Below, in pieces: positions 37,586 to 49,871 of a stretch of DNA of 64,000 nt (the first letter of the stretch is position 1; the number at the start of each line of letters is the position of its first letter). Source of the DNA: an uncultured Candidatus Saccharibacteria bacterium. Lineage in GTDB: Bacteria > Patescibacteriota > Minisyncoccia > Phycocordibacterales > UBA12088. The stretch lies in NCBI GenBank assembly GCA_964567265.1, contig CAZMLK010000001.1, positions 395,723 through 459,722 on the forward strand, read 5' to 3'. The notes beneath the pieces are model-generated. The model had not been told where the DNA came from. It ran no database searches and worked only from the letters and a program-made list of their open reading frames with translations. Both the position numbers and the translations under genes were made by a program.

Positions 37586-38020
37586 TTAGATGATTCCCAC
37601 TTCCCCGAGCTTCTCTGCCATCGAATCTGCCTGCTTCTCGATCCGCTTCTTGTAGTCCTGCCAGGTATCCACGTCCCAGACTTCGACTCGGGTCTCCACT
37701 CCAGCGAGTACGACTTTGTCTTTGAGCGCAGCAAACTCCTTGAGGAAGTCCGGGACGAGCATCCTGCCCACCTGGTCTACCTCGACCTCGACTGCTCCCG
37801 AAAAGAGGAAGCGGCTGAAGCCTCGAGTGTCGGCCTGACCCATGGGAAGGTTGCGGACCTTCTCGGTAATCGTCTTCCATTCCTTCAGCGAGTACACGAA
37901 GAGGCAGGCATCGAGGCCTTTGGTCATGATGACCGTCCGGCCCAGTTCTTTGCGGAATTTCGCCGGCAAAGACAAGCGCTTCTTCGGGTCCAATGTGTGG
38001 GTGTACTCGCCTATCAGCAT
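37586..38020 (-). CDS. mraZ: transcriptional regulator MraZ
   Basis: MLIGEYTHTLDPKKRLSLPAKFRKEL and the second SpoVT/AbrB-like repeat; first gene of the cell-division cluster. Confidence 0.9.
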   Translation of the reverse strand: MLIGEYTHTLDPKKRLSLPAKFRKELGRTVIMTKGLDACLFVYSLKEWKTITEKVRNLPMGQADTRGFSRFLFSGAVEVEVDQVGRMLVPDFLKEFAALKDKVVLAGVETRVEVWDVDTWQDYKKRIEKQADSMAEKLGEVGII

Positions 38021-38115
38021 GTAGCCAATTTACCACTTCTTCCCACTTAGTCACAAGTGTATAACACTTCATCCCACCCGCCTACACCTGGGTTATCCAC
38101 AGAAATGCGAAAAAC

Positions 38116-38343
38116 TTGACAGATTAATACCAATGATTTATGGTTTCGAAGTTGTGTTTTACAATACTGTTCCTTCGTCGAGGATGTACCTCACCCAGAA
38201 TTCCGAATGACGTGCTCACGACCGCAGTGCGTAGACTTCTTTTCGGGAAACTAGACTTCTACCGCTGTAGCATTCGTCAAACAAATCCGCGCAAGCGGTA
38301 GCCTGCCAAACGCGATAGCGTACGGCAGGCTTCTTTTTTATTC
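38116..38343 (+). ncRNA. candidate small RNA (~190 nt) bounded by promoter TTGACA-17-TATGGT (38116-38144) and strong intrinsic terminator (38299-38343)
   Basis: The terminator is an 8-bp GC stem agcctgcc...ggcaggct followed by TCTTTTTTATT. No ORF longer than 8 codons lies in between, and the flanking genes are on the other strand. Confidence 0.4.
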
Positions 38344-38369
38344 GAGTATGAAAAATGGAAAGGCCCGGA

Positions 38370-38401
38370 ATTTCCTGTCGGAAATTCCGGGCCGTGTGCG
38401 C
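38370..38401 (-). terminator. terminator for 38401..38805 (perfect palindrome ggcccggaatttcc-tgtc-ggaaattccgggcc)
   Basis: 14-bp perfect stem immediately after the stop, followed on the minus strand by TTTCCATTTTTCAT. Confidence 0.6.
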
Positions 38402-38805
38402 TACGAGGACCTTCGCGGCCCCGTGGATCGAAAATCAACTGCCATAGTGCCTGCGACTTTTCGTGATGCATGTACCCCGGCCACGCGTGCCGCCTTGCCC
38501 GATCGTGCAATGATTTCAATCGGACGCGTAAGCCGAGTCGGCTTCCCGTCCAAACCATCGAGCTTCACTGTCAGTCGAATACGGGGATTCGGAGAATCCG
38601 AGCCGCCTCCAGTTTGATATTCGACGTCCCCGACCGTGATCCCCGCAAGAAGGACTGCCTCTGATTCTGATCGGCAGAGATCAACAAGCGCCTGGCGCGT
38701 TGCCCGTTTCTTTTCTTCAAGGCTTCCGCGCGTTGTGCGAAAAATCGTAATCGCAACACCATCGATGCGGGCCAGTTGCGCCTTACGCTTCGGCACTTCG
38801 ACCAT
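38401..38805 (-). CDS. hypothetical protein
   Basis: 134-aa ORF with a terminator after its stop; no motif recognised. Confidence 0.35.
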   Translation of the reverse strand: MVEVPKRKAQLARIDGVAITIFRTTRGSLEEKKRATRQALVDLCRSESEAVLLAGITVGDVEYQTGGGSDSPNPRIRLTVKLDGLDGKPTRLTRPIEIIARSGKAARVAGVHASRKVAGTMAVDFRSTGPRRSS

Positions 38806-38865
38806 CGATCACCTCCATCTGTGATTTGGAATTCTCAGTGGAGAATACAACAACAAGATCATTCG

Positions 38866-40455
38866 TCAAGCAGAGACTTCACGGAGACGCGCCACAAGGA
38901 AGTCTCGGTCCAGGACAGAGAGGAACCAGCCTGCCTTCGGACCGGAATCCTTGCCGAGGAATGACTGATAGAGCGCGCCGAAGAATGCCTTTGCATCAAG
39001 TCCGCTTTCCTTCCGAATCTCGTGGAGCGCGGTGTGAAGTCCTTCCCCAGTGAGAACTTCATTTGATTCGACATATGCAAGCACCTTCCCGAGCGCCGCC
39101 TTCTGCTCGCCTGAAATATTCTTCGCGTCCTCAGGAACGTCGCCTGTCTGGAGCTCGAACTTGAAGTCATCGTCTGCGTACTTGTCGAGCCAGAAGCGCG
39201 CATATTTTGCACGGAGGGCGGCTTCTGCGCGATCGTCTTCGGTGAGCGGACTTCCTTTCATGCGTTCGACTTCCTGGTACAGATCCATGTGCGGCATCTG
39301 CACGATGAACGCGACCTGCGAGAATCGCGGCAAGAAATGCTCGGGGATCATTTCACGCTCCTCAGGGAAATGGATGAAGCGGAAGAGACGCGTATCATCG
39401 TCTTCAACGCCGCTCCACGCCTTCTCCGCGAGCTTGTCGAATTGGTCGAAGAGTATCGGGATCGTATCACCTGCTGGATCGACATTCACTTGCTGGTTGA
39501 TGTCCTTGCCGAGAAGCGCGAGGCGGAAGATATGGGGCGGCAGAAGATCAGCGACATCGCGTGCAGCAGACGCATTCCCTTTCGAAGAAGACATCTTCTT
39601 GCCGCCGATCAGGAAGAACTCGTACGGCACGTTGAATGGCGGCTCGTGGCCAAAGACTTGCTTCGAGATAGCGTTCGCGACCTCGCGTGAGCCACCTTTC
39701 GTGGAGTGGTCCTTCCCCGCACCTTCGATCGCGACATTCATGACTTTGAATTTCGCCGCCCACTCTACTTTCCACGGAAGCTTCGCGCGGCCGTCGAACG
39801 GCGAGACGCTTCCTTCATGCGCGCACCCTTCCGCCCACTTCACCATGTTCGGCATGCAGACATACGAAACCCTTTCACCATCAAATCCGGTGACCTTGGT
39901 GGTGCCGATCTTGCCGCAGTTCTCGCAGATGACCTGGAGCGGATACCAGTCGTCAGGCTTCACTGAGTTTGAAATTTCCTTGTAGAGACGGCGAATGACG
40001 TCTGCGTGTTCAAGCGCGAGGCGGATGACGTCGTTGAATTCGCCCGCGCGATACTTGTCGCTGAGGCGATAGTAGCTTGGGTGGAACCCGGCTTCCTCGA
40101 TGACACCGGTGAACTCGAGTCCGTAGTACTCGGCGAAATTCTTCGCGTTGCCGACGGGAGATGGGATCGTAAAGAGCGGCTGGCCCATGTACTTGCGATA
40201 GACGGCCTCATCGAGGTACGCCGGCATGCCGTCCATCGGGTCCATGTCGTTGATCTCATAGAAAAACTCGTTGTCGACGCCCGCTTCCGTAAGCGCCTCA
40301 GAAATGACTCCGTGGATGGCTGCGCCGCGCATCGAGCCCACGTGTACCCGACCAGAGGCAGTCTTCTCATCGCGTATGACGAGTTTCTCTCCCGCTTTGA
40401 TGCGGGTTGCCAGCTTTTCTTGTATGTCGCCCGTAAGGCGGTCTAGCCAGAACAT
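38866..40455 (-). CDS. lysK: lysyl-tRNA synthetase, class I
   Basis: N-terminal FWLDRL...HVGSMRG (HIGH-like) and the KMSSSKGN motif diagnostic of class-I LysRS. ~530 aa. Confidence 0.8.
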   Translation of the reverse strand: MFWLDRLTGDIQEKLATRIKAGEKLVIRDEKTASGRVHVGSMRGAAIHGVISEALTEAGVDNEFFYEINDMDPMDGMPAYLDEAVYRKYMGQPLFTIPSPVGNAKNFAEYYGLEFTGVIEEAGFHPSYYRLSDKYRAGEFNDVIRLALEHADVIRRLYKEISNSVKPDDWYPLQVICENCGKIGTTKVTGFDGERVSYVCMPNMVKWAEGCAHEGSVSPFDGRAKLPWKVEWAAKFKVMNVAIEGAGKDHSTKGGSREVANAISKQVFGHEPPFNVPYEFFLIGGKKMSSSKGNASAARDVADLLPPHIFRLALLGKDINQQVNVDPAGDTIPILFDQFDKLAEKAWSGVEDDDTRLFRFIHFPEEREMIPEHFLPRFSQVAFIVQMPHMDLYQEVERMKGSPLTEDDRAEAALRAKYARFWLDKYADDDFKFELQTGDVPEDAKNISGEQKAALGKVLAYVESNEVLTGEGLHTALHEIRKESGLDAKAFFGALYQSFLGKDSGPKAGWFLSVLDRDFLVARLREVSA

Positions 40456-49319: not shown

Positions 49320-49871
49320 TTATTCGCTTATTTCTGCGTCCTTCTTTTCGGCCAGGAGTTCGAGCGCCTGATTGCCCTTATCGATGAGTTTTTGCATATC
49401 TTCTTTCGCGCGGAACTTCTCGTCCTCGCTCATCTCGCCCGCCTTCTCTTTTTTCTGGATGTCGTTCCATGCCTCGTCACGGCCCGAGCGGAGCGCGATC
49501 CGCGCTTCCTCAAGCTTCCCTTTCGAGAGCTTCACGAGCATGCCGCGGCGCTCTGAGGTCAGCTCTGGGAATGAGACGCGGACACCGCGATCGTCGGCGC
49601 CGACGGAGACGCCCATGTCTGCGGCAGTAATCGCCTTCTCGATCTCCTTCGCTTGCGACATATCCCACGGAGAGATGCGGATGGTGCGCGCATCCTCGAC
49701 GGAAATATTCCCGACCTGATTCAGCGGGACCTTCGAGCCGTACGAATCGACGCGGATATTGTCGAGCAGCTGCGGGGTCGCGCGGCCAGTCCTGATGCCC
49801 GAATATTCCCGCTTCAGCCAGTCTTCTGTTTCTGCGATTTTCTTCTTGAGTGGTGTGAAATCGTATGCCAT
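49320..49871 (-). CDS. frr: ribosome recycling factor
   Basis: MAYDFTPLKKKIAETEDWLKREYSGIRTGRATPQLLD... is consensus RRF. Start trimmed to that Met. Confidence 0.9.
   Translation of the reverse strand: MAYDFTPLKKKIAETEDWLKREYSGIRTGRATPQLLDNIRVDSYGSKVPLNQVGNISVEDARTIRISPWDMSQAKEIEKAITAADMGVSVGADDRGVRVSFPELTSERRGMLVKLSKGKLEEARIALRSGRDEAWNDIQKKEKAGEMSEDEKFRAKEDMQKLIDKGNQALELLAEKKDAEISE

Follow-up and report, generated by a model that had tools for sequence, protein, structure and literature searches.

The 64,000-nt stretch of DNA analysed here (contig CAZMLK010000001.1, positions 395,723 to 459,722; hereafter the window) comes from a member of the Paceibacteria, within the Patescibacteria or candidate phyla radiation (CPR), whose closest named relatives are metagenome-assembled genomes (MAGs) of Kaiserbacteria and Campbellbacteria. 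Its minus strand carries, in order, a class I lysyl-tRNA synthetase (LysRS) gene (38866-40455), a gene for a hypothetical protein of 134 aa (38401-38805), a spacer of 380 nt and mraZ (37586-38020), with rsmH, ftsL and a penicillin-binding protein gene following downstream of mraZ. The subject of this report is a unit on the plus strand of the spacer which begins with a promoter, ends with a terminator and is predicted to yield a transcript of ~190 nt (38150-38341, with a 5' end predicted 6-7 nt past the -10 hexamer and a 3' end within the T-run). An earlier note on this DNA had proposed an independent small RNA (sRNA) gene bounded in this way, and our analysis supports that proposal: no Rfam family accounts for the unit, it is conserved as a unit with compensatory changes, no plus-strand gene lies downstream and no open reading frame (ORF) is conserved. 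That the candidate is a real non-coding RNA gene we consider very probable. The fuller reading, a lineage-restricted, independently transcribed and structured non-coding RNA gene of ~190 nt that acts in trans through a conserved core, is the one we favour, with a more measured degree of confidence. Both flanking genes are on the minus strand, as the note had it; its description of the hypothetical gene as divergent was mistaken, since that gene is co-directional with mraZ and hence convergent to the candidate RNA. Neither this nor the other corrections to the note given below alter its main proposal.

Homologues of the unit were found in about six lineages, with MraZ proteins 83-100% identical to that of the window, and in all of them the unit lies on the strand opposite mraZ. 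The loci of relatives are referred to here by L numbers. The nearest are L099, with an identical RNA, L004, with a spacer 89% identical to that of the window, and L001-L003, with an MraZ that is 100% identical. The others are L085 (MraZ 86%; different 5' half of the RNA), L086 and L087 (both 85%), L092 (83%) and L005, a GTDB MAG (83%). The clade is sparse in public data, only four MraZ clusters at least 83% identical to the window protein being present among 5.8 billion proteins. Searches by blastn and nhmmer of 80 GTDB Paceibacteria mraZ loci found L005 only, and a promoter-pattern scan of JGI metagenomes returned four matches, all due to chance and all in AT-rich DNA. Phage and plasmid records searched by blastn showed no similarity to the locus, and a second copy of the candidate RNA is absent from the window. 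In about 75 other Paceibacteria species LysRS is usually followed by a bidirectional terminator and the mraZ control region, an arrangement that leaves no room for such a unit. The family is confined to a small, genus-sized clade, and no curated RNA family was matched.

The promoter is of the sigma-70 type and reads TTGACA-17-TATGGT on the plus strand at 38116-38144 (hexamers at 38116-38121 and 38139-38144), just as the earlier note had described it. Judged by its sequence, it is oriented away from mraZ. Neither the hexamers nor the 17 nt that separate them change among the window, L004, L001, L005, L086, L087 and L092, while the sequence of the spacer varies at many positions; in L085 the promoter is TTGACA-17-TAATTT. 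Directly 5' of the -35 hexamer an A-rich tract, GCGAAAAAC (38106-38115, plus strand), resembles an UP element and may serve as one, and AAAA(C/T)TTGACA occurs in the window, L001, L004, L086 and L092. At the other end of the unit is an intrinsic terminator (38300-38342, plus strand), which consists of an outer stem (38300-38307/38324-38331), an inner hairpin ACGC-GATA-GCGU (38310-38321) and a T-run (38331-38342); the hairpin, AGCCTGCC...GGCAGGCT at 38300-38331, is followed by TTCTTTTTTATT. It had been called one of the strongest terminators in the window, and it does rank fourth among 69 candidates with a hairpin and T-run in a crude scan. An automated terminator scan missed the hairpin at 38300-38331 because its loop is longer than 8 nt. 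Across the family the position and shape of the terminator are kept and its sequence is not.

Comparison with relatives, named in the earlier note as a check on its reading, found promoter, core and terminator in place and compensatory changes in the terminator, in a GNRA hairpin and in the 5' hairpin. In a MAFFT/RNAalifold alignment of all eight sequences the pairs recorded for the terminator stem include CG:6/UA:1/AU:1, CG:6/AU:2, UA:4/UG:4 and GC:7/GU:1. The changes from U-A to U.G and from G-C to G.U are tolerated only on the plus strand, because the other strand would be left with A.C mismatches. The GNRA hairpin is CCGC-GCAA-GCGG in the window and CCCU-GUAA-AGGG in L001, so that two pairs are compensatory, and the GNRA loop is kept on the plus strand only. 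The consensus from MAFFT and RNAalifold recovers the terminator alone, because the two subtypes of the RNA (described below) are misaligned elsewhere, and on account of these misplacements we used folds of the individual sequences together with a manual pair table. That table, which covers five helices, has 17 G.U cells among 136 and not a single non-canonical one, and several pairs show double changes; as we chose the helix arms ourselves, it is descriptive and does not constitute a test.

A more independent line of evidence comes from a covariance model trained on the 3' domains of L005, L086 and L092 only, with which 582 kb were searched. Though built without the window sequence, the model finds the window at 38214-38342 on the plus strand with 32 bits and an E-value of 1.9e-5. 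It also finds L004, L001 and L085, and nothing else falls below E 0.5 in a search that took in some 80 further mraZ loci of Paceibacteria. In the model-fitted alignment, which has seven distinct rows and leans towards structure, 87.8% of cells pair, compared with 72.4 +/- 2.2 in shuffled alignments (0/500) and 31-46% when the partners are slid. The outer stem of the terminator is paired there in 100% of cells, with changes on both sides in four of its eight pairs.

The predicted RNA opens with a hairpin, P1, at its 5' terminus (GUUGUG-UUU-UACAAU, 38151-38165, plus strand), which emerges from the folds and the pair table. The 5' arm of P1, AAGUUGUC, comprises the first transcribed bases and is near-invariant in the family, and changes in the 3' arm keep the pairing through G.U or through double changes (G.U to C-G between the window and other lineages, A-U to G-C between L086 and L092). 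A central domain follows at 38209-38278 on the plus strand, supported by the minimum free energy fold and by local folds of six lineages, in which an outer stem (38209-38216/38269-38278) surrounds a core hairpin (38225-38235/38258-38267). In L001 the same central domain is closed by another base stem, GUCUUC/GAAGAC. Within this domain lies a near-invariant core of 25 nt, CCGCAGUGCGUAGACUUCUUUUCGG (38222-38246, plus strand), identified in the alignments and with the family consensus CCGCUGUGCRUAGGCUUCUUUUCGG. The core is made up of the 5' arm of the core hairpin and a pyrimidine-rich motif of the apical loop, CUUCUUUUCGG (38236-38246), and this motif stands at the apex of a local hairpin in all six lineages folded. 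Variants of the loop are CCUCUUCUCGG in L005 and UUUCUUUUCGG in L001. Outside the promoter, the 5' arm, the core and the terminator, the RNA is variable between lineages.

Two subtypes of the RNA can be distinguished. The window type (window, L004 and L001) has an extended core loop, an A/C-rich linker, CAAACAAAUCC, and then the GNRA hairpin (38278-38298 together, the hairpin occupying 38287-38298, plus strand), features seen in RNAs of this type only. The second type (L005, L086, L087 and L092) has instead a segment AAGGAGAU...AUG-CGC-UAG. On the minus strand of these loci (L005:2420-2470, L086:2530-2580, L092:130-185) the conserved AAGGAGAU is followed after 8-9 nt by AUG-CGC-UAG, which amounts to a Shine-Dalgarno (SD)-like box and a mini-ORF of two codons; the segment is missing in the window type. 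The CUUCUUUUC loop has a complement in the purine box of the second type, and the 5' arm of the core hairpin has one in GAUGCGCUAG, so that this RNA could take up either of two mutually exclusive folds.

Could the unit encode a small protein rather than an RNA? The earlier note had seen no plus-strand ORF longer than 8 codons here, which is incorrect, as an ATG ORF of 53 codons lies at 38140-38301. A small-protein gene, whether this ORF or a shorter one in the same frame with the peptide AVRRLLFGKLDF, would agree with the mere presence of the ORF, with a frame that is open across the core in all homologues, and with the finding that, of the four core substitutions separating the window from L001, three are synonymous in this frame, changes that can equally well be read as preserving pairs in the RNA. 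However, the ATG falls within the -10 hexamer, and L004 has an in-frame stop even though its intergenic region is 89% identical to that of the window. A start codon and a ribosome-binding site are conserved nowhere, the lengths of the ORFs differ, and in L086 and L092 the frame continues through the terminator. Owing to a 1-nt indel, moreover, the window and L001 read the conserved block CAAACAAATCC in different frames, and Pfam gave no match. With start, frame and length all lacking conservation we rejected the small-protein gene, to which we give next to no chance.

Known RNA families do not account for the unit either. Using Rfam 15 and Infernal, no family was found at the gathering score across the whole window, nor at E<=10 in the region 37950-38900, on either strand. 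The homologous regions of four relatives returned only noise from Rfam at E<=1, and ARAGORN detected no tRNA or tmRNA gene in the loci of five relatives. The judgement by eye in the earlier note, that the sequence matched neither 6S, SRP, tmRNA nor RNase P RNA, is thereby borne out by family models and by ARAGORN. It had likewise excluded a leader or riboswitch, and this stands, as no plus-strand gene follows and no riboswitch model matches. Inspection of the sequence revealed no upstream segment that would compete for the 5' arm of the terminator in the manner of an antiterminator. Of the families open to comparison, 6S RNA (RF00013 and related) shares the length of ~190 nt, the non-coding nature and the strong promoter, but has no covariance-model match to the candidate even at E<=10, and 6S RNA is a rod with a central bubble and paired 5' and 3' ends, whereas the candidate is a series of separate hairpins ending in a terminator. 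The mraW RNA motif (RF01746), a cis-regulatory element upstream of mraW/rsmH in some Actinobacteria, is similarly associated with the control region of the dcw cluster (mraZ-rsmH-ftsL-pbp), but the candidate is on the opposite strand and there is no match to the motif's model on either strand. Being transcribed away from the dcw cluster, the candidate cannot be the leader of that cluster.

The closest parallels are in general organisation. OxyS/oxyR, GcvB/gcvA and SgrS/sgrR are trans-encoded sRNAs with their own promoter and Rho-independent terminator, each divergent from a transcription-factor gene. The candidate is like them as a free-standing promoter-to-terminator unit within a size range of 100-250 nt, with a short conserved segment in an otherwise variable RNA, and in the window it too points away from the gene of a regulator, mraZ, the presumed operator lying in between. 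It is unlike them in that sequence or model similarity is lacking, the adjacency to mraZ is lost in L005, L086 and L087, and the host belongs to the CPR. A second parallel is with RsaE/RoxS and RNAIII, Gram-positive sRNAs whose seeds are pyrimidine-rich hairpin loops. Here the likeness is the C/U-rich CUUCUUUUCGG at a hairpin apex, complementary, with G.U pairs, to purine tracts resembling AAGGAG; the differences are that the candidate has a single such motif and not several, that its genome has almost no SD signal, and that Rfam gives no match. Given its own promoter and same-strand terminator, its conservation in relatives and the lack of a conserved ORF or downstream gene, the candidate has what is expected of an sRNA gene. 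It is a new, lineage-restricted case of an ordinary kind, the free-standing bacterial small RNA gene. Our literature search found no description of an sRNA divergent from mraZ or of sRNAs in the CPR.

As to how it might work, we envisage an RNA that would be made and be stable, its ends protected by the 5' hairpin and the terminator hairpin, with the 25-nt core as the proposed functional site acting in trans. The 5' arm and loop of the core are constant and the 3' arm is free to vary, which suggests that the core recognises a partner and that the 3' arm only masks or presents it. We think it reasonably likely that the RNA acts in trans, with base-pairing somewhat likelier than protein binding as the means. 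Base-pairing with an mRNA is the mode we favour, tentatively.

A number of observations weigh against a structured RNA acting in this manner, the first being that the candidate is known here from DNA sequence alone. Single-sequence folds reach only modest z-scores (window -2.56, L092 -1.31, L001 +0.81). In the model-fitted alignment helix 1 is misaligned for the window type, the 3' arm of the core hairpin is misplaced for it too, and with about six informative lineages the covariation statistics are weak and below the depth appropriate to R-scape. The promoter match taken alone is not significant, two being found in 5 kb where 2.2 are expected by chance. Also, no alignment of the first 70 nt of the RNA is possible even with L001, although the two MraZ proteins are identical. 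This last point is part of a wider pattern, in which the window and L001 are 94.5% identical in DNA on the mraZ (dcw) side up to 38121 and ~84% identical on the side of the synthetase and the 134-aa gene, with ~100 nt in between (38121-38222, the promoter spacer and the 5' part of the RNA) that are unalignable and include a 21-nt indel. Such mosaic divergence points to a recombination boundary that passes through the promoter or inside the RNA gene, and from the sequences it looks like one inside the RNA gene.

Some of these observations would suit a simpler explanation, namely that there is no gene at all and that a spacer which evolves fast has by chance a promoter-like match with a terminator-like hairpin downstream of it. 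Promoter-like matches do occur at chance frequency in the region, the spacer is mosaic and diverges fast, and most of the class lacks the element. On the other hand, the hexamers, their spacing, the core and the terminator have been kept across lineages in which the flanking DNA has diverged to 76-87% identity or beyond alignment, compensatory changes are present, and the window copy is detected by a covariance model that is independent of it. We regard the absence of a gene as extremely unlikely and return to the RNA acting in trans.

The searches for a target add to the points against it, as all four kinds that were made gave negative results. The search space consisted of the window, about 10% of a genome of ~620 kb, and the dcw loci of relatives, and with only 64 kb of the genome searched the negative result is weak. 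One site considered was at mraZ codons 10-15 (GAYCCGAAGAAGCG), which ranks within the top 1% for L086 and L085 alone and is at background level in the window, L004, L001, L005 and L092. The site (+31..+45 of mraZ) is strong in those two lineages only, an apparent compensatory change fails in L004 and L092, and the site was rejected. Another was a perfect 11-mer complement to the loop motif, CCGAAAAGAAG, at 49341-49351 on the minus strand, for which the chance expectation is 0.08. It falls within the final codons of frr, and an rseP-like (Peptidase_M50) gene lies 26-36 nt downstream of it. The five closest RRF proteins end in ...LLKKKE... instead of ...LAEKKD..., which removes the CCG part; we therefore rejected the site as a conserved target, and the match is probably coincidental.

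A more general mode of action, pairing of the loop with SD sequences, was also considered. SD-like tetramers (GGAG, GAGG, AGGA or AAGG at -20..-4) precede 11 of the 57 starts, these starts being first-ATG guesses, compared with a background of 25% inside ORFs, and pairing of the loop is no better at start regions than in the interiors of ORFs. A generic anti-SD action was rejected on these grounds, the genome being nearly without an SD signal and the loop without a preference for start regions, and the low SD usage makes action in an anti-SD style less likely. Lastly, when the 36-nt core region was used to scan the entire window for duplexes, the best value was -37 kcal/mol, inside the range of -33 to -39 obtained with shuffled probes.

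These negative searches can also be taken in favour of a different partner, the RNA being real but binding or sequestering a protein, with the 25-nt arm and loop as the recognition site. Such a role would fit the conservation in sequence of one stem arm and the loop alongside variation of the other arm. It would also fit the A/C-rich linkers (ACAAACAAA), found in the window type and in a neighbouring unit of some relatives (unit 1, described below), which resemble single-stranded sites for protein binding. However, there is a single copy of the core per RNA, unlike sponge RNAs with their many repeated sites, and no candidate partner is linked, as the 134-aa gene is absent at L005, L086 and L087. 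The searches that found no target, moreover, count for little, having covered 64 kb of ~620 kb. Protein binding, the chief alternative, is in our estimation unlikely, though worth keeping in view, and pairing of the core with an mRNA remains our tentative preference.

The position of the unit calls for a closer look at the mraZ control region. On the minus strand upstream of mraZ there are seven GTG(G) boxes (38036-38100; starts at 38100, 38087, 38077, 38067, 38054, 38046 and 38036) with a spacing of 8-13 nt, and conservation across ~70 Paceibacteria loci extends over the ~85 nt next to mraZ on this side. By analogy with known MraZ operators, we presume this array to be the MraZ operator. The -35 hexamer of the sRNA promoter starts 15 nt beyond the distal box in the window, and 14-20 nt past the last presumed box in the window, L092 and L085 taken together, so MraZ may co-control the RNA. 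The adjacency of promoter and operator is not conserved in L005, L086 and L087, where the homologue of the candidate is 270-350 nt further from mraZ, behind what we call unit 1, with its promoter, core and terminator kept.

Unit 1 is an unrelated non-coding unit of 230-330 nt, which again runs from promoter to terminator and has the mraZ operator on one side and the candidate's homologue on the other (L005:2560-2900, L086:2665-2905, L087:2655-2905, and in part in L088, L089 and L091; minus strand). It has a TTGACG-17-TACATT/TATCTT promoter and a terminator of its own, and contains one or two modules of the form GUGCG...CGCAC + AAACA(A/G)AUAC. Unit 1 has no Rfam match, and the 64-kb window holds no copy of it.

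This arrangement brings up an explanation in cis only, according to which the divergent promoter modulates mraZ and the dcw cluster through competition for RNA polymerase or through supercoiling, the terminator blocks antisense transcription and the RNA as such has no function. The short distance from the last operator box to the -35 hexamer in the window, L092 and L085 agrees with this, as does the fact that the terminator abuts that of the convergent gene. In L005, L086 and L087 it is unit 1 that takes the position next to the operator, so some divergent promoter always flanks the operator in this clade. But the displaced units of those same three loci still keep promoter, core and terminator at their greater distance, and a promoter with an insulator would require neither the conserved internal core of 25 nt nor the 5' hairpin. 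Furthermore, the ~75 other Paceibacteria do without such a promoter and have the bidirectional terminator only. We hold a role in cis alone to be very unlikely, and an RNA that acts in trans through its core remains the preferred reading.

A broader proposal would combine several of these elements: the dcw control region may host a small family of regulatory RNAs, comprising the candidate and unit 1, divergent from the operator and co-controlled by MraZ, with the core acting on distant mRNAs. We consider this distinctly improbable. If true, Patescibacteria would have their first described riboregulators, and a division regulator would be linked to post-transcriptional control in a genome that barely uses the SD sequence. 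Aside from this proposal, the unit is cleanly bounded, conserved, non-coding and without an Rfam match, and it is therefore a concrete candidate for a regulator. Patescibacteria are ultra-small, mostly uncultured bacteria with reduced genomes, and this would be a first concrete sRNA candidate there, whose position beside the MraZ operator suggests a testable link to the control of cell wall and division. The importance is otherwise modest, this being one more unannotated sRNA candidate in a genus-sized clade.

Two further features of the mraZ control region deserve mention. An extended -10 element, TGGTAAATT, lies 6 nt before the mraZ ATG (38018-38036, minus strand) and is kept in L005, L085 and L092, and no SD sequence was found for mraZ. 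With the extended -10 only 6 nt from the ATG, mraZ appears from its sequence to be leaderless. The other feature is the perfect 9-mer of a DnaA box that the earlier note reported at 38093-38101. The sequence TTATCCACA is indeed present on the plus strand, but the same site on the minus strand, TGTGGATAA, is better read as the distal repeat of the MraZ-type array. Upstream of mraZ, TTATCCACA is perfect in 36 of 79 species and present with <=1 mismatch in 53 of 79, as opposed to 0 of 79 in control stretches. In the window as a whole it is not enriched, there being 3 perfect copies and 10 at <=1 mismatch where 6.7 are expected. The site does not have the look of a replication origin with its cluster of DnaA boxes, as the box is single, has no origin features nearby and is in register with the six other GTG boxes; by analogy the site is probably a repeat of the MraZ operator. 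A less probable alternative is a real DnaA site at TTATCCACA that couples replication to the dcw operon. A cluster of DnaA boxes at 1975-2393 adjoins an M23 peptidase gene and small ORFs and not dnaA or dnaN, and was rejected as an origin.

On the far side of the unit, the 134-aa gene has an intrinsic terminator of its own at 38350-38393 on the minus strand, with a stem of 14 pairs (38393-38362) and then TTTCCATTTT, which is kept in L001, L004 and L099. The terminators of the candidate RNA and of this gene face each other, and the two transcripts should not overlap. The 134-aa protein is an orphan with two matches only (99% and 76% identity) among 5.8 billion proteins and with no Pfam domain. 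Apart from the three loci without it named above, the contigs of L092 and L085 are too short to judge whether the gene is present. Between the window and L001 its length is equal, with 41 synonymous and 32 non-synonymous codon differences, and it is probably a real, fast-evolving gene that was inserted between LysRS and the candidate RNA. In most Paceibacteria (L006-L084) the 100-250 nt upstream of mraZ have a simpler layout, in which the LysRS gene is followed by a strong hairpin flanked by A- and T-runs and then by the mraZ control region. From its sequence this hairpin is a bidirectional terminator, and the synteny of LysRS and mraZ is widespread across the class.

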